Part shown: positions 21,682 through 59,092 of the stretch, one piece after another
Numbering within the stretch: the first letter of the stretch is position 1
Layout: each line of letters starts with the position of its first letter
NCBI GenBank assembly: GCA_965222235.1
Contig: OZ244939.1
Coordinates: 184,585-248,584 of the forward strand
Direction of reading: 5' to 3'
Origin: Minisyncoccota bacterium
Lineage (GTDB): Bacteria; Patescibacteriota; Minisyncoccia; Phycocordibacterales; JABAAK01
DNA length: 64,000 nucleotides
The notes under the pieces: model-generated
The model's database searches: none
What the model was told of the DNA's origin: nothing
Seen by the model: only the letters and a program-made list of their open reading frames with translations
Translations under genes and position numbers: made by a program

Positions 21682-21707
21682 CTTAATGGTTCAATACATT
21701 TGCACAT
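21682..21707. repeat. IS481-family terminal inverted repeat, left copy (26 bp)
   Basis: Exact reverse complement of 22618-22643. Confidence 0.85.
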
Positions 21708-22617: not shown

Positions 22618-22643
22618 ATGTGCAAATGTATTGAACCATTAAG
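22618..22643. repeat. IS481-family terminal inverted repeat, right copy (26 bp)
   Basis: Exact reverse complement of 21682-21707. Lies about 20 bp upstream of the transposase ATG. Confidence 0.85.
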
Positions 22644-41562: not shown

Positions 41563-41563
41563 G

Positions 41564-41636
41564 AGCCACCTGTCGGATTCGAACCGACGACCTACGCGTT
41601 ACGAGTGCGTTGCTCTACCGACTGAGCTAAGGTGGC
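41564..41636 (-). tRNA. tRNA-Thr (anticodon CGU)
   Basis: Manually folded cloverleaf. A 7-bp acceptor stem GCCACCT/AGGTGGC, D-arm GCTC/GAGC, anticodon loop CTCGTAA with U33 and A37, and T-loop GTCGG-TTCGAAT-CCGAC. There is one A:C mismatch at the base of the anticodon stem. Confidence 0.8.
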
Positions 41637-41690: not shown

Positions 41691-41761
41691 GCGGGTATAG
41701 TTCAGTGGCAGAACGTAGCCTTCCCAAGGCTAAAACGAGGGTTCAATTCCCTCTACCCGCA
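41691..41761 (+). tRNA. tRNA-Gly (anticodon CCC)
   Basis: GCGGGTATAGTTCAGTGGCAGAAC...TAGCC-TTCCCAA-GGCTA...GAGGG-TTCAATT-CCCTC-TACCCGCA. A typical tRNA-Gly acceptor and D arm with a short variable loop. Confidence 0.8.
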
Positions 41762-41861
41762 CTTAAGTGTAAAAGAAGGATGGTACCCAGTTCCCCATTG
41801 ATGCCCCGAACTATAGACGGAGTGCTTATATTGCATTGTTATGCCTAATCATCAACAGGAC

Positions 41862-44144: not shown

Positions 44145-44346
44145 ATTGTGCCAAGAAAATCGGCATTTATACTACATTTTTATAATACCACCATCTTCCA
44201 ACTACGACTAAAAGAATCCACACAATGTAAAATAGCTGTATATGCTGCGGATTCCCGAGTCAAATTCCTACCGTATGAAAACGCTGCCGGCTGCCACAAC
44301 ACAAGTACGGAAACAAGACATACCGCCAACATGCTATACTGCCAGT

Positions 44347-44511
44347 ATGAAAAAAGATAATGAACATAAAGTACACGACGTACAAAAAAAGGTTCCTATC
44401 CTTAAAGCGCATGAGGTGCGCGACAAGTTCACTGATAAAGAATTTGAAGTGTTTGCTAAAGATATTCGGGATCGTTTCTTACCTGCGTTTAAAAAACTCG
44501 CTAAAGAATAG
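44347..44511 (+). CDS. candidate antitoxin (small charged protein immediately upstream of doc)
   Basis: ORF of 54 aa (MKKDNEHKVHD...) ending 3 bp before the doc start. Position and size fit a Phd-like partner. There is no sequence-family evidence. Confidence 0.4.
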   Translation: MKKDNEHKVHDVQKKVPILKAHEVRDKFTDKEFEVFAKDIRDRFLPAFKKLAKE

Positions 44512-44514
44512 TGT

Positions 44515-45006
44515 ATGGATTTTACCTATCCGCCGAAAGATGAGATGAGGGTGCGTATTGAAAAAATCAAAAATCTCTGCGAAAAAGAAAAAGATTCTTT
44601 CCTTGCAAGGATGTTCGCTTCACCCGACCCGCATGATAAGACAGTGGTGTTTGACTACATTGACGATGAATGGATAGACACGGTACACGGAAAGATTCAG
44701 TCGGTCGCTGAAAGCAGTATGTATAACGGTGACGGTACCGTTGAGCACCGAATCGCCTATATCTGCGTTGACATTAACACAGCGCATCGTTTCGGCAACG
44801 GTAACAAACGTTCAAGCCTGTTGACCTTACTTTTACTCCTCATCTACAACGATATGTGGGAGCGAATTCGCATGACAAATGATACAGACATCTACAACCT
44901 CGCCAAAAAGATCGCACGGGAGGGCTCAGCGGGGAGAGATAACAATATCATTGCTCTTCGTGAATGTCTCAAACACGGCAACTTTAAAAAATGTACCGAG
45001 ATTTAA
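44515..45006 (+). CDS. doc: Doc (death-on-curing)/Fic-fold toxin
   Basis: Doc-type Fic motif HRFGNGNKR (consensus HxFx(D/N)GNKR) in a protein of about 160 aa. Confidence 0.7.
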   Translation: MDFTYPPKDEMRVRIEKIKNLCEKEKDSFLARMFASPDPHDKTVVFDYIDDEWIDTVHGKIQSVAESSMYNGDGTVEHRIAYICVDINTAHRFGNGNKRSSLLTLLLLLIYNDMWERIRMTNDTDIYNLAKKIAREGSAGRDNNIIALRECLKHGNFKKCTEI

Positions 45007-45176: not shown

Positions 45177-45644
45177 TCATCTTCCGGTGTAGGGGCGCAT
45201 TATACCGTTGTCTTCATTGATCCAGAATCTCTTGCCGGCATTCGGACCAGTGAAGTATATTCTACCGCACTCGCACTGCTCTCCCGTCTTATCCGGCTTG
45301 CAGATTCCGAATCTATCGTAGCGATAATTGTTTTCATCGTAAAGTACTGATGCAACCGACGGAATGATCGGACACACCAGCGGTTGTTTTGATGGGGCGG
45401 ATGTTTTCTCAGCTGAGATGTTTTTGAGCGCTTCCGTTACTTCCTGAAACCCCCGGTCAATTTGCTCCAGAATTTCTTCTATTGCTTTGTTGTCTTCATA
45501 CCGGGAAAATGTCTCAACAGGATTAATCGCACCGGTGCTACGCAATAGCGGGCTGTACGAGCCGGTTACAAAGCCGAGTATGAACAGCGCAAGCCCAACA
45601 ACCAACATACTGCAGATAATTTTGTGTTTTTGGCTCATATGCAC
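45177..45644 (-). CDS. hypothetical membrane-anchored protein
   Basis: N-terminal TM (IICSMLVVGLALFILGFV) and a C-terminal region with four Cys. No recognisable family. Confidence 0.35.
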   Translation of the reverse strand: MHMSQKHKIICSMLVVGLALFILGFVTGSYSPLLRSTGAINPVETFSRYEDNKAIEEILEQIDRGFQEVTEALKNISAEKTSAPSKQPLVCPIIPSVASVLYDENNYRYDRFGICKPDKTGEQCECGRIYFTGPNAGKRFWINEDNGIMRPYTGR

Positions 45645-45789
45645 CCATCATTATACTTTATATGTCATTAAGTTTCAGATTGAATTCGCACCTGAAGTGC
45701 AACAAAAAGAAAAAACACATACGCCCGCTTGGTACTATGGATATGTTACTAACCATAACCAAACAGGCGTATGTACACTCATAGTACCA

Positions 45790-46407
45790 TTACTAAGTGG
45801 TATACACCACCAGAGAATCTATGACCGGGTAAGAAGAGAGCGACCGGATCTCAAAGACAGGTTGCCGAGAAAAGGAAGGAAGAAAAGAAAGAAAACAGGA
45901 AAGAGGACAGTATGGGTCAGTACAACACGGTCAATACACAACAGACCGGAGACAGACGGGCTCTCCCGGGAGGGAGACACACTGGTGGGGCCGACAAAGA
46001 CAAGAATACTCACCCATGTGGAGAGGAAAAGCTTGTATCTTGATGCCAGAGTCATACGAGACGGTTTGTCCTACACCGTACATGAGACACTGCAAAAGAG
46101 ACCGCTGCAGGGACAAATCACCTATGACTGCGGTTCTGAATTCACCCTATGGAAATGGATAGAAGAGGATACGGGAGCGACTGTCTACTTTTGTGATCCT
46201 CATTCCCCGGGACAGCGGGGCAAGAATGAGAACACTACCGGCAGGCTCAGACGAGTCTACCCCAAGAACACTGATCTCAGCACGATAGCACAACAGAATC
46301 TCAACAATATTGTCCACCTCATGAACAACACCCCGAGGAAGTCCCTTAACTGGAAAACTCCCGCTCAGGTGTATACTGCACTTGTTGCATCTCAGTCGAG
46401 AGTCTAA
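45790..46407 (+). pseudogene. IS30-family transposase, 5'-truncated remnant (catalytic DDE domain only)
   Basis: The C-terminal 200 aa match the IS30 catalytic region (EGDTLVG ... YDCGSEF ... YFCDPHSPGQRGKNENTTGRLRRVYPKNTDL ... NNTPRKSLNWKTPAQVY). The N-terminal HTH domain is absent and no terminal inverted repeats were found. Confidence 0.65.
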
Positions 46408-46497: not shown

Positions 46498-46602
46498 ATG
46501 ATGCTTTTTCCCACAATGTTTGTGTTACAATGCAATACATATGAAGGAGGGAAAAGAGTACATCCCGAGGTCGCAGGAACCAAAACCTTTCATGGAAGGA
46601 GC
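46498..46602 (+). repeat. direct repeat, left copy of the pair bracketing the RHS locus
   Basis: The 97-bp stretch at 46506-46602 is identical to 57499-57595, verified base by base. It carries ...ttgtgttacaatgcaatacat ATG AAGGAGG..., so it includes a start codon and an SD-like purine tract. This copy is followed by only a 29-codon ORF. Confidence 0.85.
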
Positions 46603-47247
46603 AAGGAAGAGGGAGGCGAAGTGGTGAGGGGAGAGCGAGGGCGAAGCGAAGCACAGCCCGAACTGACCCGAGCCCTGAGGCGATCGATGACGAAGTGAAC
46701 TCGCGAAGCAAAAGGACGGAAGGGGGAATACTGTACCTGCCGCGCCTTTCACCGACGACATTTTCTTTTTCCTTTGCCCCGTCGTGCGAGACGCAGTTCT
46801 GTCAAAGACATGATGACTGTCCACTCTCCATACCGTACCGGTACCTGGCTGTCTCGAGCACGCGGGGTGCGGGGTGCGGTTGAATTGCAAAAGAAAATGA
46901 CGACGGTGATTGGCGCGGGGAGCGGCGCGGAACACTTTGCGCGTTGCGAGCTTGCGAGTGGCGCTCCTTTGTTGGTTAAAGTGTTTACTGTGCGTACGGA
47001 GCGTATGGTTTGGTTTGGAGCTATGGGGCGAGTGGAGCGTGCGAGTTGGGAGTGTTTAAATTACACTGTTTCCGGAGTTCGTGGACAATGTAGGTTACTG
47101 TACTTTTGGGTAGTGTTTTGGAACTCTCTGAAGTTTGAGCACAATCTCCTAAACGGCACTTAGAGGTAAAAGATAGCACTATGCGATTGTTTATTCAGCT
47201 CTGCTGATCCTACTCGGCATAGTATATATTTTCTTTTAAAAACCTTT

Positions 47248-47892
47248 TCAATCCCATGGTATTTTATTTTCGTTTTCATCTACCGGGTAGTAATCTAAGA
47301 TAACACCATTTCTAAGAAAAGGAGATAGGGGCAGGTGATGGAAGTAGTACCTTTGACCTTCTTTGGGTCTGTGAGGTTGAAGGAATAAGTAGGTGTTTAG
47401 ACTGTTTTTTGCGCGTGCACTCCCACCGATATTAAATTCCGGATCCGCGATATTTATATGAGTACTCCAACCGAATGCACCCTGATTATAACTTTCAACT
47501 GTGTATATCTTTTTAATAGAAACATCCCCATAGATTAAAGAGATCATAGTATATTTTATGGCGGGGAATAAATAAAATAATAGGAAGATTCCTACAAAAA
47601 ACCCCATAAAATGGAGTGTGACTGCCATCTTGTTTGGTTTTCTGCGGGGAGAGATAAAATTGTACAACCCCTTTTTATTTCTTTTGTACAAAAAATAGTC
47701 TGTTTTGTACATTTCAAATAGAAGTAAAAGGGACACTGCACTGTAGAAGGAAAAATAAAAAATCCAGCTTGCCAACCATTCCGGTAGAAAAAATTGTGAT
47801 ATGGAAATAGTCACAAAAAAAACAGTACCGGTATATTTATAAATAGGATTTCCCTTGAAAAATTTAATGATTTTCTTTAGAATGTTCTTCAT
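47248..47892 (-). CDS. candidate immunity protein for the orphan RHS C-terminal toxin (3-TM membrane protein, paralog of 49369-50013)
   Basis: Protein of 214 aa. Its start overlaps the orphan toxin stop by 4 bp. It is roughly 50-60% identical by eye to the protein following the full-length RHS gene. Three predicted TM helices and a roughly 100-aa C-terminal soluble part. Confidence 0.55.
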   Translation of the reverse strand: MKNILKKIIKFFKGNPIYKYTGTVFFVTISISQFFLPEWLASWIFYFSFYSAVSLLLLFEMYKTDYFLYKRNKKGLYNFISPRRKPNKMAVTLHFMGFFVGIFLLFYLFPAIKYTMISLIYGDVSIKKIYTVESYNQGAFGWSTHINIADPEFNIGGSARAKNSLNTYLFLQPHRPKEGQRYYFHHLPLSPFLRNGVILDYYPVDENENKIPWD

Positions 47893-49400
47893 CTTCCTGA
47901 CTGTAACTCTGCTATTTGTCTTTTTATTCGTGTTATCTCTCTTATTAAGTAAGAGATTTTTTCTCTTTTTGCTCGCGCAGCCTGATAGGTTTCTATGTGT
48001 CTCCCTACTCCGCTATAAAAGGATTTTGGAAACGATCTTGTTGTCTCAGCAACAAAGCCTTTCAATCCTGTTGTAGCACTTACACCAAATATAGAAACGT
48101 TTCCGTTGCTAAGTTTTGTGAGTGTTGATGAGTACACTGCAGAAAAACTGTTGGAACCACTTGTAATGCCAGATATTTTTATATATTTGCCAATACCAGA
48201 AAAAACAGCACTCTCAAAAAATCTTGAACTAAGTCTTGCAAAATTAAACTCCTGATTCGGGTCCTTATGCATCTCCCATCCTTGCTCAATTGAATCTCTG
48301 ACTACACCACCAGCAGTGCCTGCAATGATAGCAGCTAGTAAAGAAGTACCTACTACCAGCCCTCCGGTAGTAGCACCTCCGGCTGTAGCTGCAATATATT
48401 TATACCCTTCAGAAACCTCACCGGCAATAACATCAGTAATCACCTGAGAACCTGCCCCTACTAATACACCAACTGTGACACCAATCGCTATATGCGCCAA
48501 CTCCCCATCCCTATCCTCATAGCGCAGAGGATTATTCATAGCATACGCATAGGTATGGTGTGCCTGAGGATTGGTAAGGTAGTCAAGAAACGATACGCCT
48601 GTTGCTGCCTCAAACGCCACCGGACCTCCTATGTATTCTATTACCGGATCTTTGGAGATAAACAGTCCTTTATTCGGATCGTAGTATCGAGCATTTCTGT
48701 AGATAAAGTCTGTTTCATCCGTTATATTCCCCGTATGGGTATAGAGTGAATCTGTTGTGGCTGTTTCCGTATGTTTTTCTCCGTAGGGGTAGTAGTCTAT
48801 TGTTTGGGTTACCGTTCCTTCTTTATTTATTCCCGCAATGGTACTTCCCAGTGCATCAGTGTAGAGATGGGTGTGCTGTGTTTTCTTGCATCGGGTGTCT
48901 TCTGTATTCGGGGATACAGTGACTGCTGTTTCATTTCCTCTTTTTACTACGATATTACCGTTTTCCGTTACCTTTGTATACTCTGTCTCCGGTGTGAGAG
49001 TGAAGAGGAGACTGGTTTGTGTGAGGAGACAAAGATCACTTACCCCGCTTACATTCTTGATACTTCCTATCACTTCTCCTTCGGCGAAGATGTGTGTTTC
49101 AATAGTACCGTTTTCAAGGGTGTAGTACGGATTTACAAAAACTGTACTACCTGTCCCCTTTGTTTCTTTCACCCGATTACCTTCATGATCATAGAGATAG
49201 GTGTAGGTGTCAGCTCCTTCGGTGATTGTTTTTACTCTGCCTTTGTAGTCCCAGGTAAGGGTGTTGGTTCCGTCTGTCAGGAAGTTTCCGTTTGTGTCAT
49301 AGGTCTGTGCCGCTGTGCCTACTGTAGTGGGCATGTGGGGGGTGGTGAAGGTTGTCTCATCGATTGTTCTACTCATCATATATCCTATTTCTATTTTCAT
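47889..49400 (-). CDS. orphan RHS C-terminal module: the last YD repeats, the RHS core (...RYYDPNKGLFISKDP...) and a diverged C-terminal toxin domain
   Basis: Residues from DETTFTTPHMPTT to NNPLRYEDRDGELAHIAIG are near-identical to the C-terminal part of the 50010-57374 protein. The last 200 aa diverge (VTVGVLVGAG... versus AAIGAAIGAL...). It has its own ATG (MKIEIGYMMSR). Expression is uncertain. Confidence 0.7.
   Translation of the reverse strand: MKIEIGYMMSRTIDETTFTTPHMPTTVGTAAQTYDTNGNFLTDGTNTLTWDYKGRVKTITEGADTYTYLYDHEGNRVKETKGTGSTVFVNPYYTLENGTIETHIFAEGEVIGSIKNVSGVSDLCLLTQTSLLFTLTPETEYTKVTENGNIVVKRGNETAVTVSPNTEDTRCKKTQHTHLYTDALGSTIAGINKEGTVTQTIDYYPYGEKHTETATTDSLYTHTGNITDETDFIYRNARYYDPNKGLFISKDPVIEYIGGPVAFEAATGVSFLDYLTNPQAHHTYAYAMNNPLRYEDRDGELAHIAIGVTVGVLVGAGSQVITDVIAGEVSEGYKYIAATAGGATTGGLVVGTSLLAAIIAGTAGGVVRDSIEQGWEMHKDPNQEFNFARLSSRFFESAVFSGIGKYIKISGITSGSNSFSAVYSSTLTKLSNGNVSIFGVSATTGLKGFVAETTRSFPKSFYSGVGRHIETYQAARAKREKISYLIREITRIKRQIAELQSGR
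48479..49362. repeat. duplicated RHS core segment, orphan copy (about 884 bp, near-identical to 50615-51498)
   Basis: The ORF track shows identical antisense ORFs at 48492 and 50628. Only a handful of mismatches were seen. The boundaries were read from where the alignment breaks: above 49362/51498 and below 48479/50615. Confidence 0.85.
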
Positions 49401-50013
49401 CTACTGGGTAGTAATCTAGTATGACCCCTACTCTAAGAAAAGAAGAAAGGGGTAAGTAATGAAAATAATATTCTTGATCTGGTTTCGGTCTGAACGGGTG
49501 TAAAAATAAAAAGGTGTATAAACTGTTCCTTTCGCTTGCACTACCACCGATATTAAATTCGGGGTCTTTAATATAAATATGTGTTATCCAACCAAACCCA
49601 CCCTGACCAGACTTTTCAACCGTGTATACCTTTTTAATAGAAACATCTTCATGAGCTAAGGAAACAACAGTGTGTTTAATGACAGGAAGGACAGAGAATA
49701 AAACAAGAATAATCATAAGAGATTCTAAAATACGTAGTACGAGTAATGTTTTGGTTGGTTTCTTATTAAAATAAAGATAGGCATGTAATCTTTTTTTATT
49801 TTTTGTATATAGAAAGTAAATCGGTTTGCATAACTCAAACAAGCAAACAAAAAACATGGCAGTATAGAAATAGAAGTAGAAAATCCACGTTGATAGCCAT
49901 ATTGGTATGAAGTATTTCGGTACAAAGAGGACAATGAAAAGACCGATGCCGATATAGGTATAGATAGGGTGTTTCTTAAAAAATCTGATAATTTTTTTCA
50001 AAATGTTCTTCAT
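49369..50013 (-). CDS. candidate immunity protein for the full-length RHS toxin (3-TM membrane protein)
   Basis: Its start codon overlaps the RHS stop in an ATGA arrangement at 50010-50013. Protein of 214 aa, paralogous to 47248-47892. Confidence 0.55.
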   Translation of the reverse strand: MKNILKKIIRFFKKHPIYTYIGIGLFIVLFVPKYFIPIWLSTWIFYFYFYTAMFFVCLFELCKPIYFLYTKNKKRLHAYLYFNKKPTKTLLVLRILESLMIILVLFSVLPVIKHTVVSLAHEDVSIKKVYTVEKSGQGGFGWITHIYIKDPEFNIGGSASERNSLYTFLFLHPFRPKPDQEYYFHYLPLSSFLRVGVILDYYPVDENRNRIYDE

Positions 50014-53000
50014 CTTCTTGATTGTAGTGCTCTGATCCTTCTTTTTAATCTTGTTATTTCTTTTCGTAAGTAAGAGATTCTTTTCCTGATGCTTTGTGTC
50101 GTTATGTTGCTGTTATGTACACGTCTCTGAGTTCCTTCAAAAAAAGATTGAGGAAGTGATCGTGTTGTTTCAGCAACAAAGCCTTTTAATCCTGTTTTAG
50201 CACTCACATTAAGTATGGAAGCAGTGCCCCTACCAACTCGTGTGAGTGTTGATGAGTATGTTGAAGAAAAACTATGAGAACCTTTTGTGACATATGGAAT
50301 TTTTACAAATTTGCCGGCACCAGAAAGAAGAGAACTTCCTATTGTCCTAAAACCAAATCTCACAAAATTAAATTTCTGATCCTCGTTTTTATGCACCTCC
50401 CAACCTTGCTCAATTAAATCTCTCGTTGCCCCACCGGCACCTCCTGCAAGAAACAAACTGGCACCTCCTGTACCCGCTGCTATTGTCCCGGTAGTAGCAC
50501 CTCCAACCCCGGCAGCAACATAGCGGTAGGGATCAGAAACCTCTCCTGCGATGACATCAGCAACTACTTGAGAACCTATTCCTGCTAGTGCACCAATCGC
50601 AGCACCAATCGCAGCACCAATCGCTATATGCGCCAACTCCCCATCCCTATCCTCATAGCGCAGAGGATTATTCATAGCATACGCATAGGTATGGTGTGCC
50701 TGAGGATTGGTAAGGTAGTCAAGAAACGATACGCCTGTTGCTGCCTCAAACGCCACCGGACCTCCTATGTATTCTATTACCGGATCTTTGGAGATAAACA
50801 GTCCTTTATTCGGATCGTAGTATCGAGCATTTCTGTAGATAAAGTCTGTTTCATCCGTTATATTCCCCGTATGGGTATAGAGTGAATCTGTTGTGGCTGT
50901 TTCCGTATGTTTTTCTCCGTAGGGGTAGTAGTCTATTGTTTGGGTTACCGTTCCTTCTTTATTTATTCCCGCAATGGTACTTCCCAGTGCATCAGTGTAG
51001 AGATGGGTGTGCTGTGTTTTCTTGCATCGGGTGTCTTCTGTATTCGGGGATACAGTGACTGCTGTTTCATTTCCTCTTTTTACTACGATATTACCGTTTT
51101 CCGTTACCTTTGTATACTCTGTCTCCGGTGTGAGAGTGAAGAGGAGACTGGTTTGTGTGAGGAGACAAAGATCACTTACCCCGCTTACATTCTTGATACT
51201 TCCTATCACTTCTCCTTCGGCGAAGATGTGTGTTTCAATAGTACCGTTTTCAAGGGTGTAGTACGGATTTACAAAAACTGTATTATCTGTCCCCTTTGTT
51301 TCTTTCACCCGATTACCTTCATGATCATAGAGATAGGTGTAGGTGTCAGCTCCTTCGGTGATTGTTTTTACTCTGCCTTTGTAGTCCCAGGTAAGGGTGT
51401 TGGTTCCGTCTGTCAGGAAGTTTCCGTTTGTGTCATAGGTCTGTGCCGCTGTGCCTACTGTAGTGGGCATGTGGGGGGTAGTGAAGGTTGTCTCATCGGA
51501 GGTAAGATAAGTATAGTTGCCGACACCCGTTTTTGAGGTTATATTCCCTATCGCGTTGTATGTATAGCTTCTTGTGTAATTGTTTGATCCGTTATTGGTT
51601 ACTGTTGCACTAATGAGACGATTCATATTGTCATACGTGTATGCTTTGTTTACCGCTGTACCCGATGTGTTAGTATCAATCGTAGCAGTTATGTTACTGT
51701 CTCTGTCGTAGGTGTACTCAAGTTTTCTCGCAACAGCGATACTATTCCCCTTCACTTCCCTTATTGTCAGTCTTCCCGATGAATCGTATGTGTTTGTTTC
51801 TTTTGATCCGTTTGATCCGGTTTTTGTGTCAACCAGACCGAATACGTTGTAGGTAAGGGTTGTAAAGGGAGTATCGCTCACGGATACCGAAGAAACTCTG
51901 CCATTTTTTCCGTAGATGTTTTTAATAACAGTGCTGTTCGGAAGTGTTGTGGTGACTATGCCATTCTGTAAATTATGTGTATAGGTTGTTGTGTATGCGG
52001 TGCCGCTGATTGTTTTCACCTCTTCTTTCAGATTTCCTTCTTTATCGTATTTATAGGTCGCATTAACACTATCCGCTGAGGTAACAGAACAGATGCTTCC
52101 TTTTCCGTTCTCACAGGAATCGTATGTATACTGATAATCCGTTCCTGTAACAGATGCTCTGTCCTCCGTTAATGCCCTGCCGAGTGCATCATAGGTATAT
52201 GCTATAGCGGTTCCGTCCCGCTTTGTTTTTGATGTCAGGTACTCCTTGTTATACGCAAATTGCAGTGTCTTGTATGTCGTATCACTCGTGTGATGTAAAT
52301 CCTCAATGCTTGTGGTTCGTCCTATCATGTCATACTGTATACCACGGACATTATTCAACGCATCCTTCACTTTAATAATGCGATCCAATGGATCGTAGGT
52401 ATAGGTGGTGGTATGGGTGGAGGCACCGTCTATTTCATGCACCCTGTGCAGACGCCCGTAGCTGTCGTGTTCCAAACGTTTTTTCCTGTCCTCCGCCGAG
52501 GTAATTTCAACCGTATGCCCGTCATATGATGAAGTTGTTGTTCCGACCGGATTAACCACAGATACTATTCTGTTCAGCCCGTCATAGGTTGAGGAAGTGT
52601 TTGACGTGCCGGTTGGTGTTGTTGCATATGAACTTGTTGATGACTGGTACGGCATGTATTTTTTCTCAATCAGTCCCCGCTCGGTGTATGTTACATCCTC
52701 AGTATCAAACTTCGTGCCGTTAGATGTTTTTGTCTGTATTGTTCTGCCCAGACCGTCCATGTATGTCTGTCCGATTCTGGTTGCTGATCCGAAGTGCTCC
52801 CTCCTTTGCACTGAGTACGGACGATTTGTAAAGTTATACGAATAATCCGCCACTGTCTCTTTTGTACTTGCCCGTTTTTTCTTTATCGCCGTTATTCTGT
52901 CAATTCCGTCAAATTCGTAGTATATCTCAAAACCGTTCGGGTCTGTTATTTTTGTTACCTCTCCTGATGTTTCGTCGTATTCATACTGTGTGACATGTGA

Positions 53001-56000
53001 GAGTGGGTTGGTTTCCTGTGTCAGACGCAGTGAGTTGGTGTCATACGTATAGGTTGTTGTGTTGTTCAGGGAATCATTTTCCGTCAGCACCCGCCCTCTC
53101 GTGTTGTATGTGTAGGTTCTTTTTTGCTTTGTCGTGCCGTCTATCTTTCTCTTTTTTGTGAGCATATTCCCATTTGAGTCGTAGGTATACTCATTTTCAA
53201 CAATAATCACATCCGATGCATTTTTTATCGTTTCCTCGGACAGCAATGAAACTATATAATTGGTCGTGTCCGGCGTTTTGTAGGTGTACACTACCTTGCG
53301 CAATACGGCGGTTCCGCTCTTTTTTGTCTCAGTGAGCACATTACCGTATGTGTCGTAAGTGTATTCCGTGCTGTTTGAGTAGTCATCACCGAATGTTACA
53401 TTGCCGCTGCCGTATACCGTCTTTTTCTCTTTTGTCAGGTACATGTATGTGCTGTTTGTGCCGTTGCTGGTTTCCCCGTATGTGTATTCAATCTTTTCAA
53501 GAAGAATGTTCGACTCGCCTTCATTTACTGCCGCTTGGTATATTTCTTTCTTGTACGGAAGTCCTATTTTTGCATACGAGTCAGTCGGTTCCGCATTGGT
53601 GCTATTCTGCCCATTTCCCTGGTGGTAGTATATTTTTTCTTTTCTGTTTCCCCGTGTTCTCTCCACTGTTTCAAAACCGGCGAACTTTTTGTCAGACGGA
53701 CCGTTAAAGTAGTAATACCCGCCTGTGTACCCGAGAGTTTCCGTGTTGTCCGTGGCATATGTATCCGTATATGCAATTGAGGAGACGATGCGGAGGGGAA
53801 ACGGCACCCTGTTGGTTGTATCATGCACTCCGGCACCGGTGTACGATATATCAAAACTGCCGCCGTATTTGGTAGTGATTGTGTCTAATTCAAACGTGTT
53901 GTCAGCAATGAAGTATTTGTAGTCATATCCAAAATTTCTTCTCCCCACTCTTTGCTTTTTATAGTACACATCATTTATTCCGTCGCCGTTTACATCTATC
54001 ATGGCATTTACATATATATTTCCGTTTGAGTTTGATCCGGCATGTTCTAATATACCTGCATTCCTGAGAGCGTCGGTATATTTCTTACTGTATTGATACC
54101 CATCAATACCCTTACTCAAATAGACTCGGTATCCGTAGTTATGTGTTTTGGTTATATCTTTGATATTTCGATCAATATCTCTATCGTTATAAATATCGGT
54201 GACAATGAGGTCATACATACCATCCGTGTTTATATCCTTCCATGATCCGGCATATCTGTCAGTACTGAAGTTATTGTTTCCGTCGGCAAAATAAATTGTG
54301 GGGTAATTCAAGTAATCAATGTCCGCCGACCAGCCGAACCCATTATTGATTTTAGATCTACTTATATCAGCAAGACCGTCACCGTTGTAGTCAATAAGGA
54401 AGTTCGGAACTCGTAACCCGTAATAGGGACCGTGATAGGGATCCCCCCTGTTGTAGTACAGAATATACGGTACTGATATGGTGCTTGACTGTACCGGATT
54501 AAATCCGTCGGCGTTTAGAAACACAAGTGTTGTAGTGTAATCCCTCCATCCGCCACCACGAGTATGCCTATCATACCTCTTTGGAAATACATCCAACGTC
54601 CCATCTCCGTTTATATCACCCAGACCGTCAGCCCATGAGGAATGAAAGTCCCTGTTAATAGAGGTTCTGCTGAAGGTGTTGAGTGAGCCATTATTCTTGT
54701 ATATATAACTGTTAGTACTGCACCTCTTACATCTTCTTGTTATGACCTGAAGAAAATCAGGGTAATAATCGCCGTTCATATCAAACTTACCCTGAACGCT
54801 ATCAAATGTCGGAAACATATCGATTGCGGAGTTAAAACCGTTACCATTGTTCACCTGAGTATCATTTGTCGCCCCCAAGGAAACAACATCAGGCATACCA
54901 TCCCTTGTCGCATCTGCAAGACCTGACGGACCGGTAGATCCATAACTGCTGTTTTCCGTGTATGAAATAGTGTCAGTGTATCCAAACGTTGTTTTCGGTT
55001 CGGTTGTCCAATTGCCGTCTGCATCCTTGCCGTATTTGTACAACGCTTTGATAACATACGTGTATTTCAATTCATTGACAAGTTCAAGATCCTGTTTGTA
55101 TGAAAATAGTTTTTCCGTACCTTTGTAAAAGTCAATGCCGTTTATTATGTACTTCGTTTTTACCGGAAATCCTGTATTGAAAAGTTTTGTCTTATCATTT
55201 CTCCCCTGTTTGGTGAATTGGAGCGAATACACATATGATCCTCCGGAAGTATTTACATACTCTATCTTCTTCGGGTATATCTGCCCGTGGTCTTTGGTGT
55301 ATGTGTACTCTATCGTGTTGCCATTTGTATCTTCTATCTTTTCAAGCATCCATTTGAACGTTTCTGTTTCCCACTGTACCGTGCCGTCCTGACGCGCCTG
55401 CAGAGTTTCACCGAAGTAATACTTCGTACCGACGGTATCAGTTACTACCCAATAATCACCAATTTTCTCGTATTTTCTGAATGCTCCTTTTTCTGTCCTC
55501 GGCTTATACATCTCCGACTGTGTGGTACTCTTTGTTGTTGTTTCACTTATTTTGTATGTGTATACCTCACCCCCATCGTACCACCGGTTTCGGCGACTGT
55601 CAAACCTGGTAACTCCCGCAGCGATATATCCTCCGTCAAGAGATATTGATCGCGCAGAAAAATCACCTGTGATGTCGGGGGGAATTACTTTTCTCTCAAA
55701 TCCCCAGGTGCCGTCACTTTTCTCTTTATACACATAAAACATATACTTTCTATGTTCTGTATCCCTTGCGCCCACTGTTAAGGTGTCTCCGTCGAGCAAA
55801 ACACCCCATGAACCGAAAACAATGTTCGAGTGGCTGTCTGACGCTTTCAGTTTCACCGGATTACCCCATGTTCCGTCTGATTCTCTCGTGTATACATACA
55901 CCGCACCAGAGGATTCAATACCGGTACTCTCCCCACTCATACCGATTGCCAAGGTGTTTCCGTTGATTGCAACAGATGTGCCGAATGGGGTTTTTCCTAT

Positions 56001-57374
56001 TATGACTTGATTTTCATATTTTGTAGTATTGCCGGGCTTGCTTGCATTACCCCACCCTCCGTTCACATCCTCTTCGTATATAAATACTGCCGGACCGTTG
56101 CCTGTAGTAACTACAAGACGATTTCCTGCTAATGAAATACGATCTCCGAACTCTCCTGAAGTGTTGCGATTCCCATATCTGGCGCTCGGATACAGTGACT
56201 CTTTTTTTATCCACGAACCCGCATCATTCCGTTTATATACCTCAATATACCACCATGACTGTCTATCCCTCGCCTTCACCGCCAGTATGTCATCATCAAG
56301 GTATACGGTATCAGCAGACCGAACCTGAATTTCCGTTCTGTTTCCCCACACATCATTCGTCCCCCTTTTATACACAAATACCTTGTTACTTGAAACCGTG
56401 ACAGCCAAATAATCTCCTGATAGGGAAATATTTTCTCCGAAACTGGAATATGTGGCATCCGACAATCGTTGTAAAAAAGCCCACGAGCCGCTACTCTGCC
56501 TCTTGTATATATACACCACACCGTCTGCTCCATTTCTTTCGTTGTCGTCTAAGTCGTATGTAGGGGCACTCATAGCAAGGTAGTCCCCGTTTAGTGAAAC
56601 CCTTTGTCCGAACCGGCTGCTTGCTTTCCAATCGGTCGGCACAATTTTCTGTTTACTACCGATGGCATACTCCTTTACGGGATATGATGTAGACGATATA
56701 CTTGCCGTATTTTGTTTTACTATTTCACCGTCCAGTGATGAAATATAATCATCGTTTGTATATATTTTATTTGAACCCTTTTTTGTTGATCGCTCTATAT
56801 ATGGTATATCCACTTCCCAACCGTACCCGAATATGCCGTTATTCTTTTTGTTGGAACTCTTGAAAACAAGATTGTGCTGAGGAGTAAACCCGTTTCTCCC
56901 TTCGGGGACGGTAAGAGAGTATGAATAGGTGAGTGATCCGTCTAAATTGTCTATCAATGGGTGAATAACATTCCCTGATGATTTTATTGTTCCCGTTGTC
57001 CCGGATGAAGAGCCCGATGCCCCTGATGCCCCATCTTCAGTATCCTGATTATCAACATAATCGTCAGGCAACTCAAAGGACGGGTGAATGGGGCCCCCGC
57101 TATCAACAGAACCCTGAGCGGGAGGTTCCGGCAAATCACCGATTCCGTCATCCTCATCCGGCGATACGGTACCGCTCGGTCCGTCCTCTATCTGCCCTGA
57201 CGGTCCCGAAGTTTCACCCTGTGCATAAGAAACCAACGGGTTAAGGACAAGGAGCAGTGAAAGTGTAAAAGAAAGGAGTACCGATGATATTGAATGATAT
57301 CTCTTATTGCGAAACGGTACAATAGTATCAAGTGAACTATACGAACTGGTTACCATATTAAAGAAACGGTACAT
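50010..57374 (-). CDS. giant RHS/YD-repeat polymorphic toxin, a fused TcB/TcC-like cocoon protein: signal peptide, SpvB-like N-terminal domain, FG-GAP/VCBS beta-propeller repeats, YD repeats, RHS core and a variable C-terminal toxin domain
   Basis: Start set at MYRFFNMVTSS, 57374. The ORF-track extension to 57731 runs through the divergent promoter region and is judged artefactual. Signal peptide ISSVLLSFTLSLLLVLNPLVSYAQG. SpvB-like block GSLTYSYSLTVPEGRNGFTPQHNLVFKSS...GYGWEVDIPYIERST. DxNGDGxxD repeats (DINGDGTLDV, DYNGDGLADI, DVNGDGINDV). Dozens of YD repeats (YTYDTNGN, YEYDETSG, YTYDALGR...). RHS core RYYDPNKGLFISKDP ... NNPLRYEDRDGE, followed by a 208-aa C-terminal domain rich in glycine-zipper motifs. 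Confidence 0.85.
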   Translation of the reverse strand: MYRFFNMVTSSYSSLDTIVPFRNKRYHSISSVLLSFTLSLLLVLNPLVSYAQGETSGPSGQIEDGPSGTVSPDEDDGIGDLPEPPAQGSVDSGGPIHPSFELPDDYVDNQDTEDGASGASGSSSGTTGTIKSSGNVIHPLIDNLDGSLTYSYSLTVPEGRNGFTPQHNLVFKSSNKKNNGIFGYGWEVDIPYIERSTKKGSNKIYTNDDYISSLDGEIVKQNTASISSTSYPVKEYAIGSKQKIVPTDWKASSRFGQRVSLNGDYLAMSAPTYDLDDNERNGADGVVYIYKRQSSGSWAFLQRLSDATYSSFGENISLSGDYLAVTVSSNKVFVYKRGTNDVWGNRTEIQVRSADTVYLDDDILAVKARDRQSWWYIEVYKRNDAGSWIKKESLYPSARYGNRNTSGEFGDRISLAGNRLVVTTGNGPAVFIYEEDVNGGWGNASKPGNTTKYENQVIIGKTPFGTSVAINGNTLAIGMSGESTGIESSGAVYVYTRESDGTWGNPVKLKASDSHSNIVFGSWGVLLDGDTLTVGARDTEHRKYMFYVYKEKSDGTWGFERKVIPPDITGDFSARSISLDGGYIAAGVTRFDSRRNRWYDGGEVYTYKISETTTKSTTQSEMYKPRTEKGAFRKYEKIGDYWVVTDTVGTKYYFGETLQARQDGTVQWETETFKWMLEKIEDTNGNTIEYTYTKDHGQIYPKKIEYVNTSGGSYVYSLQFTKQGRNDKTKLFNTGFPVKTKYIINGIDFYKGTEKLFSYKQDLELVNELKYTYVIKALYKYGKDADGNWTTEPKTTFGYTDTISYTENSSYGSTGPSGLADATRDGMPDVVSLGATNDTQVNNGNGFNSAIDMFPTFDSVQGKFDMNGDYYPDFLQVITRRCKRCSTNSYIYKNNGSLNTFSRTSINRDFHSSWADGLGDINGDGTLDVFPKRYDRHTRGGGWRDYTTTLVFLNADGFNPVQSSTISVPYILYYNRGDPYHGPYYGLRVPNFLIDYNGDGLADISRSKINNGFGWSADIDYLNYPTIYFADGNNNFSTDRYAGSWKDINTDGMYDLIVTDIYNDRDIDRNIKDITKTHNYGYRVYLSKGIDGYQYSKKYTDALRNAGILEHAGSNSNGNIYVNAMIDVNGDGINDVYYKKQRVGRRNFGYDYKYFIADNTFELDTITTKYGGSFDISYTGAGVHDTTNRVPFPLRIVSSIAYTDTYATDNTETLGYTGGYYYFNGPSDKKFAGFETVERTRGNRKEKIYYHQGNGQNSTNAEPTDSYAKIGLPYKKEIYQAAVNEGESNILLEKIEYTYGETSNGTNSTYMYLTKEKKTVYGSGNVTFGDDYSNSTEYTYDTYGNVLTETKKSGTAVLRKVVYTYKTPDTTNYIVSLLSEETIKNASDVIIVENEYTYDSNGNMLTKKRKIDGTTKQKRTYTYNTRGRVLTENDSLNNTTTYTYDTNSLRLTQETNPLSHVTQYEYDETSGEVTKITDPNGFEIYYEFDGIDRITAIKKKRASTKETVADYSYNFTNRPYSVQRREHFGSATRIGQTYMDGLGRTIQTKTSNGTKFDTEDVTYTERGLIEKKYMPYQSSTSSYATTPTGTSNTSSTYDGLNRIVSVVNPVGTTTSSYDGHTVEITSAEDRKKRLEHDSYGRLHRVHEIDGASTHTTTYTYDPLDRIIKVKDALNNVRGIQYDMIGRTTSIEDLHHTSDTTYKTLQFAYNKEYLTSKTKRDGTAIAYTYDALGRALTEDRASVTGTDYQYTYDSCENGKGSICSVTSADSVNATYKYDKEGNLKEEVKTISGTAYTTTYTHNLQNGIVTTTLPNSTVIKNIYGKNGRVSSVSVSDTPFTTLTYNVFGLVDTKTGSNGSKETNTYDSSGRLTIREVKGNSIAVARKLEYTYDRDSNITATIDTNTSGTAVNKAYTYDNMNRLISATVTNNGSNNYTRSYTYNAIGNITSKTGVGNYTYLTSDETTFTTPHMPTTVGTAAQTYDTNGNFLTDGTNTLTWDYKGRVKTITEGADTYTYLYDHEGNRVKETKGTDNTVFVNPYYTLENGTIETHIFAEGEVIGSIKNVSGVSDLCLLTQTSLLFTLTPETEYTKVTENGNIVVKRGNETAVTVSPNTEDTRCKKTQHTHLYTDALGSTIAGINKEGTVTQTIDYYPYGEKHTETATTDSLYTHTGNITDETDFIYRNARYYDPNKGLFISKDPVIEYIGGPVAFEAATGVSFLDYLTNPQAHHTYAYAMNNPLRYEDRDGELAHIAIGAAIGAAIGALAGIGSQVVADVIAGEVSDPYRYVAAGVGGATTGTIAAGTGGASLFLAGGAGGATRDLIEQGWEVHKNEDQKFNFVRFGFRTIGSSLLSGAGKFVKIPYVTKGSHSFSSTYSSTLTRVGRGTASILNVSAKTGLKGFVAETTRSLPQSFFEGTQRRVHNSNITTQSIRKRISYLRKEITRLKRRIRALQSRR
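50615..51498. repeat. duplicated RHS core segment, copy inside the full-length gene (about 884 bp)
   Basis: See 48479-49362. The offset between the copies is 2136 bp. Confidence 0.85.
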
Positions 57375-57488: not shown

Positions 57489-57595
57489 ATGATGTTCCTT
57501 TTCCCACAATGTTTGTGTTACAATGCAATACATATGAAGGAGGGAAAAGAGTACATCCCGAGGTCGCAGGAACCAAAACCTTTCATGGAAGGAGC
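57489..57595 (+). repeat. direct repeat, right copy, including the promoter/RBS/start of the 57533 gene
   Basis: The 97-bp stretch at 57499-57595 is identical to 46506-46602. It lies in the divergent intergenic region between the RHS gene on the minus strand and the 57533 gene on the plus strand. Confidence 0.85.
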
Positions 57596-58094
57596 GGCGT
57601 ATAGGCCTGGGGAAATCATACATTTTGACCAGGCAACCAAAGAGGAGGTTGTGGAGATTTTGAACAATCAAGATTTGTCTCAAAACGAGCGGGAGAAACG
57701 TGTTTTCACATATCTTAAAAATCATCCGCAAGATCAGCTAGTTATTGAGGGACAGATAGATGAAGTAACCTACGACGGCATTGAGAACCTGCCCCTTCCG
57801 GAGAAATATGTACTATTCTCGCATCTAATGCGAAAGTGGGATGAAAATAAATCCGTAAAAATGGAGTTAAGGAAAACCGTTGAAACCATATTTAAACGGG
57901 AGGATATCAGTGAGACAGAACAGGATGCCCTCATATCCAAGTATGTGCAAGAACAAGGTTTATCGGCAACAGATACCGATCTTCTTATACAGAAAATTGT
58001 AACCCGAGGAACCGGCAGTTTGAGCAGAAAAGAAAATGTCGCTCTTTACACAGCCCTTGAAGAGAATTGGAAACAACAGCATCACCCGCACTAA
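57533..58094 (+). CDS. hypothetical soluble protein, AT-rich, divergently transcribed from the RHS gene
   Basis: Start chosen at ATG AAG GAG GGA (MKEGKEYIPRSQ...). No recognisable family. AT-rich composition like the rest of the island. Confidence 0.4.
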
Positions 58095-58126: not shown

Positions 58127-59092
58127 TTGAACAAAACTTTCGCGCGCATGGCGTATTTCGCGAATCAAACGAAAAACATTTATGACGGGCTGGCGTGCAT
58201 TTTTTGTGTGGTACCATACCGTACAGTTATGGATGTTCGTACCAAATTCATTCTCAGCATGTTCATCCTTGCCGGTGCGGTCGGCGCAGTCAGCGTATTT
58301 GTATACATCTCCGCAACCTCGGACCCATTCGCTGACGGCGGACAGGAAATACCCCTCCGTCCGACATCCATAGAGGACGGCGGCACGGGAGGAGTAGATC
58401 CCCTGTTCCCCATAGGAGGCGGAGAGAATAACGAGACTCCGGAAAGAAAACCGGTCGGCACCATATCTCTGGAGACTCCCGAAACGCCCGAATACGAAGC
58501 GGAAAAAGATCCCGGCAGCAGATCAAACAGGGCGCGGTATCGGGTCCGCATGCATGCCCCCTGGAGCCAGCTGCAGCACGGTACTTTCTACCCGGCAGGC
58601 GCGCACCTCTCACCGATGGTTGCCTGGGCGCACCGGCTGAAAAATACGGTGTTCGCCACCGGGACGCTTGCAAGCGACGGCATGGAAATCATGGCGGAAA
58701 CGGGAGCAACCAAAACGCTCGCCGGGGAACTGCAGGAACTCGGAAAAGAGGGACGACTCCACAACTACAACATCGGGAAGCGTATTGACGCGCCCGGCGA
58801 AGACAGCGTGATTATCGTTCTCTCCAACACCGCCCCGTTTGCGAGCGTCGTGAGCATGATAGCCCCGAGTCCGGACTGGTTCATCGCAGCACATAATGTA
58901 CGACTGTTTGAAAATAATCAATGGGTGAAAAAGAGTTCGGTTCCCGCCGTTCTGTATGACTCCGGCACCGACAGCGGAACGACCTTCACCGCGAAAGACG
59001 CGGACACCGCACCGCCCGAACCCATCCACCGGTTTGCGAAAGCGCCCGTCGTACCGATTGCCACATTTGATTTCATACGCATTGAGGATTAG
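58127..59092 (+). CDS. secreted/membrane-anchored protein with a spondin_N-like domain
   Basis: TM/signal segment (FILSMFILAGAVGAVSVFVYI). Motifs reminiscent of the F-spondin N-terminal domain (YRVRMHAPWS...FYPAGAHLSPMVAWAH...SPDWFIAAHNVRLFENNQW). The assignment is tentative. Confidence 0.45.
   Translation: MNKTFARMAYFANQTKNIYDGLACIFCVVPYRTVMDVRTKFILSMFILAGAVGAVSVFVYISATSDPFADGGQEIPLRPTSIEDGGTGGVDPLFPIGGGENNETPERKPVGTISLETPETPEYEAEKDPGSRSNRARYRVRMHAPWSQLQHGTFYPAGAHLSPMVAWAHRLKNTVFATGTLASDGMEIMAETGATKTLAGELQELGKEGRLHNYNIGKRIDAPGEDSVIIVLSNTAPFASVVSMIAPSPDWFIAAHNVRLFENNQWVKKSSVPAVLYDSGTDSGTTFTAKDADTAPPEPIHRFAKAPVVPIATFDFIRIED

Follow-up and report, generated by a model that had tools for sequence, protein, structure and literature searches.

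A probable main-plus-orphan RHS polymorphic-toxin locus with a near-perfect 884-nt internal repeat in a small-genome Patescibacterium

Introduction

Why would a bacterium with a very small genome keep, directly behind a full-length toxin gene, a headless copy of the end of that gene which carries a different toxin tip? The question is raised by a locus on the minus strand of a 64,000-nt stretch of DNA (positions 184,585 to 248,584 of contig OZ244939.1, assembly GCA_965222235.1; hereafter the window, to which all coordinates below refer). In coding order, this locus consists of a gene for a large RHS protein that ends in a C-terminal tip (CT1), a putative immunity gene (imm1), an 884-nt fragment of RHS core, a second tip (CT2) and a second putative immunity gene (imm2). 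An earlier note on the same DNA had described the second half as an orphan toxin tip plus immunity cassette, created by a recent duplication and able to act as a substrate for toxin switching. Our conclusion is that this Patescibacterium of small genome size probably carries, in its chromosome, an RHS polymorphic-toxin locus of the main-plus-orphan kind. The arrangement itself is a textbook one, and it adds an example rather than a principle; its significance is that the orphan-module architecture, and probably with it the exchange of tips by recombination, exists in a bacterium of the Paceibacterota/Kaiserbacteria type.

Results and discussion

A full-length RHS gene followed by a headless second unit

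The locus is organised around a near-perfect direct repeat. One copy (50615-51498, minus strand) forms the last YD repeats and the Rhs-associated core of the main gene, matches TIGR03696 and ends at ...NNPLRYEDRDGELAHIAIG. The other (48479-49362, minus strand) is a 5'-truncated RHS core fragment that heads the orphan unit, where TIGR03696 is matched at 2e-13 by residues 203-299 of a 503-amino acid (aa) open reading frame (ORF), and it lacks a signal peptide, a propeller and most of the shell. Direct comparison in register, at an offset of 2136 nt, gave 3 mismatches over 884 nt, all of them transitions, such that the core copies differ by 0.34% (99.7% identical); the same pair was recovered by a repeat search and by self-blastn of the window. 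The mismatches lie at 49147 (orphan/main C/T on the forward strand), 49150 (C/T) and 49344 (G/A), and the codons affected (main/orphan) are GAT/GGT (D/G), AAT/AGT (N/S) and ACT/ACC (silent).

Both ends of the repeat are sharp: scored per 30-nt block, identity in register is 30/30 within it and 5-19/30, the background level, beyond it. Read along the coding (minus) strand, the repeat has its first base at 49362, 6 nt past the imm1 stop codon TAG (49371-49369), and the spacer between this stop and the orphan core fragment (49363-49368) reads AACAAT. The equivalent position in the main gene falls between ...YTYLTS and DETTF.... The repeat ends at 48479 (...GCG ATT GGT G), six codons past the RHS core motif PLRYEDRDGEL, or in protein terms at ...NNPLRYEDRDGEL-AHIAIG, after which the two copies diverge to ~67% nucleotide and 55% amino acid identity. 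In the 503-aa orphan ORF the match to TIGR03696 (Rhs_assc_core) ends at residue 299, and identity to the main protein ends at about residue 307. The two units are nevertheless collinear over their whole length, with a period of 2136 nt that becomes 2124 nt because of a 12-nt tandem duplication at the start of CT1. Self-blastn of the window revealed no further RHS or immunity remnants of the locus.

The main RHS gene (50010-57374, minus strand) encodes a protein of 2454 aa if read from the first in-frame ATG before the signal peptide, a start that was taken from the sequence. Its parts, from the N terminus, are a Sec-type signal peptide (in the hydropathy profile, a hydrophobic h-region at residues 29-47 followed by ...SYA/QGE), an SpvB region, FG-GAP propellers, a YD/RHS shell, the Rhs-associated core and CT1. 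The Pfam matches are to RHS_repeat (PF05593, 1.2e-23, in three stretches), FG-GAP_2 (8e-21) and SpvB (7e-15), together with one to FG-GAP_3 (5e-5) whose score of 24.2 is under the gathering threshold of 26.9; those in NCBIfam are to TIGR01643 (4.7e-18) and to TIGR03696 (1.2e-11, over profile positions 1-75 of 76). The motif PLRYEDRDGEL, which is preceded by YRNARYYDPNKGLFISKDP and followed by the variable tip, is a variant of the PxxxxDPxGL type. Multiple YD/RHS repeats, and a core domain with its motif and a tip, are features by which YD/RHS-repeat polymorphic toxins are recognised. Such a protein is predicted to be exported by Sec, with a YD shell capped by SpvB and propellers enclosing the C-terminal tip CT1, and this tip would be released by self-cleavage at the core motif ...DRDGEL.

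The tips and the genes that follow them form two related pairs. CT1, the deployed tip (50013-50614, minus strand), has ~200 aa, among them a conserved KIP.VT.GS.SF motif and a basic coiled-coil tail. In both tips a glycine zipper (GxxxGxxxGxxxG in CT1) stands at the start, and another hydrophobic helix, rich in Gly and Ala, comes after it. The orphan tip CT2 (47892-48478, minus strand; ~195 aa) belongs to the same family, and 107 of 195 residues are identical (55%). The zipper sequences are IAIGAAIGAAIGALAGIG in CT1 and IAIGVTVGVLVGAG in CT2, with hydropathy peaks of 1.8-1.9. The 12-nt tandem duplication mentioned above (GCTGCGATTGGT, twice; AAIG AAIG) opens CT1 at 50578-50612 on the minus strand and makes its zipper one turn longer than that of CT2. 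Behind CT1 lies imm1 (49369-50013, minus strand; 214 aa, 32% GC), the putative cognate immunity gene, and behind CT2 lies imm2 (47248-47892, minus strand), which likewise encodes 214 aa and is the putative orphan immunity gene. Both start within an ATGA overlap, in which the ATG of the immunity gene shares bases with the TGA stop of the preceding frame, and their products are 57% identical (121/211). Hydropathy, and for Imm1 an AlphaFold2 (AF2) model, predict three transmembrane helices in Imm1, two to three in Imm2 and a small C-terminal beta domain; the prediction fits an integral-membrane immunity protein in both cases.

The second unit therefore has features of orphan rhs-CT/rhsI modules in the sense of Poole 2011 and Koskiniemi 2014: it is a 5'-truncated fragment behind a full-length gene, without the region for export and delivery, its homology to that gene goes no further than the sequence before the end of the core and gives way to abrupt divergence, and a putative immunity gene of its own (imm2) stands immediately downstream. 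The match of the 503-aa orphan ORF to the main protein covers only main residues 1962-2456 (in a query numbering that begins upstream of the start codon), and neither its translation nor Pfam reveals a signal peptide or a propeller. These results uphold most of what the earlier note had said about the layout, namely that 884-bp near-identical segments lie 2136 bp apart, that their identity breaks at the RHS core boundary, that the orphan is followed by its own paralogous immunity-like gene with a 4-bp overlap, and that the whole is a classic displaced Rhs/CDI tip-plus-immunity module behind a full-length RHS gene. The note was also right that the orphan carries a different tip, but its figure of about 60% identity was too high.

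Comparison with known main-plus-orphan systems

The closest layout is that of Salmonella Typhimurium LT2, where rhs-main, rhs-CT-orphan and rhsI-orphan correspond to STM0291-STM0292 and where recombination through a common segment (522 nt, 95%) loads the orphan tip onto the main gene (Koskiniemi 2014, PMC3967940). There, too, an rhs gene of full length and its immunity gene are followed by a 5'-truncated fragment that shares only core-proximal sequence and has another CT and immunity gene. The locus described here differs in that its common segment is longer and nearly perfect (884 nt, 99.7%), in that the tip and immunity gene of the orphan are paralogous to those of the main gene, and in that delivery is predicted to be Sec-dependent, in a Patescibacterium, rather than linked to a type VI secretion system (T6SS), in an enterobacterium; switching was shown in Salmonella, whereas here we have the genes alone. 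A second parallel is with the cdiA-CT/cdiI orphan arrays of contact-dependent inhibition (CDI) systems (Poole 2011, PMC3150448), which are likewise headless tip fragments with an adjacent immunity gene and with homology up to a demarcation motif (VENN there, the core motif here). CDI orphans usually have no translation start of their own and were proposed to serve as an immunity reservoir and as recombination spares (PMC3150448). The differences are that CdiA forms a filament and the present protein an RHS shell, that the motifs are not the same, and that CDI depends on Gram-negative two-partner secretion. Among bacteria of the candidate phyla radiation, a secreted RHS/YD toxin of ~2500 aa with a neighbouring immunity gene has been reported in a Saccharibacteria genome (Starr et al. 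2018, PMC6031116). That description does not include an orphan module, and the toxin has PA14 and galactose-binding accessory domains.

With respect to its delivery end, the main protein resembles two further systems. Like WapA of Bacillus subtilis, it combines an N-terminal signal peptide and YD/RHS repeats with a polymorphic toxin at the C terminus, is followed by an immunity gene, and belongs to a bacterium without T6SS. WapA/WapI, the subject of work by Koskiniemi and colleagues in 2013, is reportedly a Sec-exported, wall-associated RHS toxin with wall-binding repeats and tRNase tips. The protein studied here differs from it in having SpvB and FG-GAP propellers and a tip of predicted membrane type, and Pfam detected no wall-binding domain in it. 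The main protein also joins, within a single chain, an SpvB region at the N terminus to a propeller of the FG-GAP type and a YD/RHS shell. This is the architecture of a fused TcB-TcC cocoon of the Tc toxins, which encapsulates its tip and cleaves itself. No TcA-type translocation partner was found among the window ORFs scanned, and the presence of immunity genes argues for an antibacterial rather than an insecticidal role.

The age and origin of the layout

If the orphan unit were a fresh copy of the end of the main gene, the tips and immunity genes should be as alike as the cores, and they are not. For CT1/CT2 the non-synonymous divergence (dN) is 0.34 and the synonymous divergence (dS) 0.8-1.2, and for imm1/imm2 dN is ~0.3 and dS ~1.4. 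Judged by these values, the CT and imm pairs are old paralogues or imports, and only the core is recent or has been homogenised. The unit is therefore no fresh duplication of the main tip, since tips with a dS of ~0.8-1.4 stand beside cores that diverge by 0.34%, and the claim that the cassette was created by a recent duplication is not supported.

Tips of ancient divergence joined to a core that is 99.7% identical leave one of two origins. Either a foreign unit of core, CT and immunity gene was inserted through the conserved core, or an old tandem duplication had its core copies kept identical by gene conversion. The second of these, in the form of a tandem duplication of the terminal 2.1-kb unit in this very lineage, followed by diversification of the tips and conversion of the core, would involve no imported tip at all; it is quite possible, if short of probable, and it concerns the origin only. 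It would account for the end-to-end collinearity of the units, at periods of 2136 and 2124 nt, for the identical order of gene families and the ATGA overlaps in both, and for a GC content that is similarly low in all parts of the locus. The difficulty lies at the core boundary, where a >100-fold jump in divergence within a few nucleotides would need gene conversion that is both continuous and sharply bounded, and where a recent insertion through the core would explain the jump equally well.

The toxin tip family and its predicted action

No Pfam or NCBIfam model matches CT1, CT2, Imm1 or Imm2, and relatives of the tip were sought by an exhaustive profile search of 1.84 billion cluster representatives (E<=1e-3), which found 182 related representatives of clusters formed at 50% identity. 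Among the best 150 of these 182, a D.xG core-type motif lies just upstream of the tip in 117, the tip is C-terminal (a median of 14 residues follow it), and 19 proteins have at least 1000 aa. Of the large or full-length carriers that were scanned, all five contain RHS repeats and two have an SpvB/FG-GAP/RHS architecture; one of the latter (P0016) is 40% identical to the main protein from end to end, and its sample of origin also yielded an immunity homologue (P0004). A word-indexed search with CT1 alone gave 8000 candidates, none of them significant, and missed CT1 itself, probably because Gly/Ala-rich words saturated the index. The immunity family is far smaller, with only 4 clusters among 5.8 billion.

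Loci of the tip family were collected with a profile subset of six sequences, which gave six loci (the fuller profile was too diverse). One of them, on a gazelle-gut contig (L021, 491-9353), contains two ORFs for EssC-type FtsK/SpoIIIE ATPases and, behind them, a pair of toxin genes that have 409 nt of 5' sequence in common at 94% identity, each with a small downstream gene of its own. The first ends in a colicin-DNase/WHH tip, and the second, which encodes a 354-aa non-RHS protein, ends in a glycine-zipper tip of the CT1/CT2 family. The occurrence of this tip at the end of a non-RHS toxin argues that it is a genuine polymorphic-toxin module used by different delivery systems, both RHS and type VII secretion (T7SS)-like. 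Two further loci (L017 and L018) each carry an RHS gene that ends in this tip and, at a distance of 68 nt behind it, a second copy of an upstream part of that gene (93-96% identity), and arrays with common 5' parts thus recur. The genes downstream of five other family members encode one to three predicted transmembrane helices in every case (5/5), and the gene after the L021 DNase tip encodes none. The tip is, in sum, the mark of an unannotated and widespread glycine-zipper family (at least 182 clusters), found on RHS proteins and on a toxin of an EssC locus, with predicted membrane proteins as immunity partners.

How such a tip might act is suggested by its predicted structure and by analogy. 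An AF2 model of CT1, built from 34 family sequences, is all-helical with a predicted local distance difference test score (pLDDT) of 73 and a predicted template modelling score (pTM) of 0.50. Foldseek of this model against the PDB gave no match with E<1, and the tip profile found nothing better among PDB sequences than E>0.006, a weak compositional match to the Gly-rich membrane helices of NDUFA11; the Imm1 model likewise had no significant match among PDB folds, its beta domain giving weak OB-like matches at most. Membrane insertion is the most likely mode of action, because the tip is predicted to be helical with a glycine zipper and has a small predicted membrane protein as its partner in every example examined. 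The tip, then, is most likely membrane-acting, a putative assignment by analogy: it would insert into the target membrane and cause leakage or depolarisation, and Imm1 would block this action in the membrane of the producer. The immunity proteins of Tse5 (RhsP1)/Tsi5, CDI ionophore and EsxX-type toxins sit in the membrane. Tse5-CT/Tsi5, the CDI ionophores and EsxX offer the closest functional analogy to CT1 and CT2, whose own activity we infer, and the likeness is in the GxxxG hydrophobic tip helices (here from hydropathy and AF2). Published work documents a glycine zipper for Staphylococcus aureus EsxX and pore formation for Pseudomonas aeruginosa Tse5 (PMC9637101, PMC10684867, PMC11630599, PMC12744356). 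CT1 and CT2 have no detectable sequence or fold homology to any of these proteins at the PDB profile and Foldseek values given above, and for this reason the membrane toxins serve as an analogy and not as a family assignment.

What the orphan module could be used for

As it stands, the spare module cannot export CT2, because the signal peptide and the shell are missing. It could, however, supply Imm2 and with it protection from neighbours that deploy CT2, which would need read-through transcription into the module and ATGA-coupled translation of imm2. It is possible, though we think it rather unlikely, that this is all the module does, such that imm2 is an immunity reservoir and CT2 with its core is a hitch-hiking remnant that is never redeployed. 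Consistent with this, imm2 is an intact gene whose start is ATGA-coupled like that of imm1, no terminator-like site lies before it within the orphan, and in a CDI system an orphan CdiI was found to be expressed and protective while the orphan toxin was not made (Poole 2011, PMC3150448). There is also a stand-alone relative: on another contig (L003, 2394-3032) an imm1 homologue (P0002, 68% identical) stands behind an unrelated 233-aa protein with a signal peptide, and no CT-like sequence was found upstream of it on that contig. Since P0002 stands without a toxin upstream, immunity genes of the imm1 family can evidently be kept on their own. On the other hand, CT2 is open over 195 codons without stops or frameshifts, and its 884-nt core is intact and in frame, which speaks against a remnant. 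The CT1/CT2 dN/dS of ~0.3-0.4 also indicates purifying selection along both lineages, although this ratio cannot show selection since orphaning.

A different use would follow if the orphan were translated inside the cell, from one of the ATGs at 49400-49376 or from an internal start, with CT2 and Imm2 then forming an addiction or growth-control module of the toxin-antitoxin kind. The 503-aa ORF has in-frame ATGs at 49400, 49379 and 49376 (minus strand), where it overlaps the 3' end of imm1, which is read in a different frame. These ATGs stand 5-29 nt before the imm1 stop, the last of them at the distance of 5 nt, and could allow termination and reinitiation. Public gene callers predict a 496-aa protein here (P0005, start 49379), and there is a precedent in the rhs orphans of Salmonella (Starsta et al. 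2020, PMC7043789). Weighed against this, no promoter or ribosome-binding signal stands out: scans for promoters and terminators showed no enrichment, with 11 promoter-like sites found and 11.0 expected, and the orphan ATGs have no Shine-Dalgarno sequence, as is also true of rpoB, rpoC and most other genes in the window. Moreover, a tip that has to arrive at the membrane from outside might or might not be active when made in the cytoplasm. We regard an internal toxin-antitoxin function as improbable, and retain the interpretation of the second unit as a spare module within a main-plus-orphan locus.

Recombination and tip switching

To judge from its sequence, the 884-nt repeat offers homologous recombination an obvious substrate, and being longer and nearly perfect it is at least as good a one as that of Salmonella. 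A RecA-type crossover anywhere in it would yield an in-frame fusion of the main gene to CT2, with a shell no more than two residues different from that of the parent. Because the copies are direct repeats, however, the same crossover also deletes the 2136 nt that contain CT1 and imm1. A cell that switched would thus become sensitive to siblings armed with CT1, unless Imm2 gives cross-protection or a duplication of the locus came first. The earlier note had proposed that recombination through the repeat swaps the deployed toxin while immunity to the old one is retained; the repeat is indeed a suitable substrate, but for a single crossover the claim of retention is wrong, in view of the loss of imm1. 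The swap in the published systems equally deletes the old immunity gene, and both papers invoke a prior duplication of the locus to keep it (PMC3150448, PMC3967940).

A second repeat may be relevant to this step. A perfect 97-nt direct repeat brackets the whole main-plus-orphan locus with a period of 10,993 nt. Its first copy (46506-46602, plus strand) lies downstream of imm2 and ~100 nt after a remnant of an IS30-family insertion sequence, opens only a dead-end ORF of 24 codons and, in the plus-strand direction, would point antisense into imm2. The second (57499-57595, plus strand) comprises a TACAAT box and the first 21 codons of a 186-aa gene (57534-58094) that diverges from the RHS gene. 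There is no sign that the repeat is a structured RNA (z-score 0.07). We speculate that the 97-nt repeats could mediate deletion or tandem duplication of the locus, the latter being the step that the Salmonella model needs, and they may equally be the scar of the insertion of the locus. Taken to its conclusion, this would make the locus one that is built for switching without loss of immunity, in which the 97-nt repeats duplicate the 11-kb unit, one copy then undergoes the crossover, and the cell deploys both toxins and keeps both immunity genes. We consider this very unlikely as it stands. Were it true, the locus could be a weapon of an episymbiotic Patescibacterium (~0.64-Mb genome) against rival epibionts or against the membrane of its host bacterium, and RHS tip-switching would then be among the means by which members of the candidate phyla radiation exploit their hosts or compete for them. 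Whatever its use, the 884-nt repeat with flanking 97-nt repeats provides a clean natural test case for a 'duplicate first, then swap' model.

Several observations weigh against a main-plus-orphan locus that switches its tips. The collections searched contained no recombinant contig with the main gene fused to CT2 and no close relative of the core: the orphan protein had no match in 185,579 species-representative genomes, a search with a 294-aa core fragment returned only the orphan itself and matches of at most 38% identity, with no sister loci, and an exact 49-mer from the core end had 0 matches in Joint Genome Institute (JGI) metagenomes. By sequence, CT1 and CT2 are of one family and so are imm1 and imm2, unlike many classical arrays in which the orphans are unrelated, and cross-immunity between such same-family pairs could therefore make a switch selectively neutral. 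The tip has no match to a toxin in Pfam, NCBIfam, PDB sequences or PDB folds, the confidence of the AF2 model is moderate, and the immunity function of imm1 and imm2 is a putative one, argued from position and analogy. The core motif reads DRDGEL instead of the canonical DPxGL, and that of the homologue P0016 is PMRYEDRNGEL. Finally, given in-frame ATGs near the imm1 stop in a genome that is largely without Shine-Dalgarno sites, the orphan may or may not be silent. The sequence shows the anatomy of the locus, its homologies and their boundaries; expression, toxicity, the specificity of immunity, the membrane target and recombination itself are matters that we infer.

Contiguity of the locus

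In a metagenome-assembled contig, the juxtaposition of two related tips could in principle arise from two strain variants that were stitched together through their common core, and short-read assemblies do break at repeat borders. Indeed, two independent short-read (Logan) contigs carry CT2-imm2 and CT1-imm1, respectively, and both break there. One of them (L002, run ERR13605531) is 100% identical to window positions 50644-49314, covers imm1 and the spacer, reaches 49 nt into the orphan core and has the orphan-specific base at 49344. Because it crosses the junction between imm1 and the core fragment with 100% identity and the orphan base, this junction is real and no scaffolding artefact. The passage from the imm1 stop through AACAAT into mid-gene core sequence is, furthermore, a novel junction with no similarity to mislead an assembler, and it is reproduced base for base in a contig from another run; allelic tips would also give imm1 the flank of imm2, and the two flanks differ. 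On these grounds we rejected an assembly artefact, which is highly improbable. The other contig (L001), which provides independent support for CT2 and imm2, agrees fully with the window between 48508 and ~46962, beyond which it diverges within a GC-rich non-coding stretch, so that strains vary downstream of imm2, with no bearing on switching. This stretch (46603-47247; 52% GC), between the 97-nt repeat and imm2, has no convincing ORF.

A template and variable repeat pair of a diversity-generating retroelement, which might be thought of because two of the three mismatches are A in the main and G in the orphan copy on the coding strand, was rejected and is as good as out of the question: Pfam scans of ~38 ORFs of the window, only one of them shorter than 155 aa, found no reverse transcriptase, and the 884-nt repeat has only three differences, all transitions and one of them T/C rather than adenine-specific, and lies in the conserved shell and core instead of in a variable ligand-binding tip. 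The earlier note had excluded such an element on the grounds that the mismatches were not adenine-specific; its exclusion stands, but with two of three mismatches of the A/G type the argument itself was loose.

The host and its genomic context

The RpoB protein encoded in the window shows 60-77% identity to its counterparts in closed Candidatus Paceibacterota/Kaiserbacteria genomes, whose sizes are 0.51-0.72 Mb, and the source contig has 641 kb. By these measures the host is a Patescibacterium of the Paceibacterota/Kaiserbacteria type, and its genome is very small. In a genome of ~0.64 Mb a single RHS locus takes up ~1.7%, which points to real antagonism in organisms that are probably episymbiotic. 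The flanks contain core housekeeping genes, among them those for aminoacyl-tRNA synthetases, rpoA, sigma-70, dnaG, rpoB (1074 aa) and rpoC (1227 aa), and also murG, murJ, RNase P RNA, secDF, ftsW, ftsEX, a Mur ligase and uvrC.

The locus is part of a low-GC island at ~41.8-58.1 kb (43-45% GC, with 32-35% in the immunity genes and 50-56% in the flanks), which adjoins tRNA-Thr (41563-41636) and tRNA-Gly (41691-41762). A comparison of the tRNA end with the far end of the island found no att-like repeats of 11 nt or more. Besides the RHS locus, the island contains a 760-aa VWA-domain membrane protein, a Doc/Fic-like gene (44515-45006) after a small ORF (44242-44511), and the IS30-family transposase remnant (45487-46407, plus strand), which matches NF033563 (E 2.4e-38) over profile positions 72-267 only and has lost its N-terminal helix-turn-helix (HTH). 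Rfam and tRNA scans found nothing in the locus; RNase P and the two tRNAs were found elsewhere in the window.

Some further features of the window deserve mention. Another insertion sequence separates rpoB from a gene for an M23 peptidase; its transposase (21683-22597; rve_3 and HTH_32) is bounded by perfect 26-nt inverted repeats at 21682-21707 and 22618-22643. Two predicted surface proteins are encoded near the island, one an 837-aa FG-GAP and peptidoglycan-binding protein (36468-38981, minus strand) and the other a spondin_N protein (58127-59092, plus strand). Several gene starts have a TAnAnT box 6-12 nt before the ATG, and those without a Shine-Dalgarno sequence include rpoB (21566), rpoC (18315) and the starts at 60417, 38981, 34426 and 24185. 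This pattern suggests that leaderless or short-leader mRNAs are widespread in this Patescibacterium.

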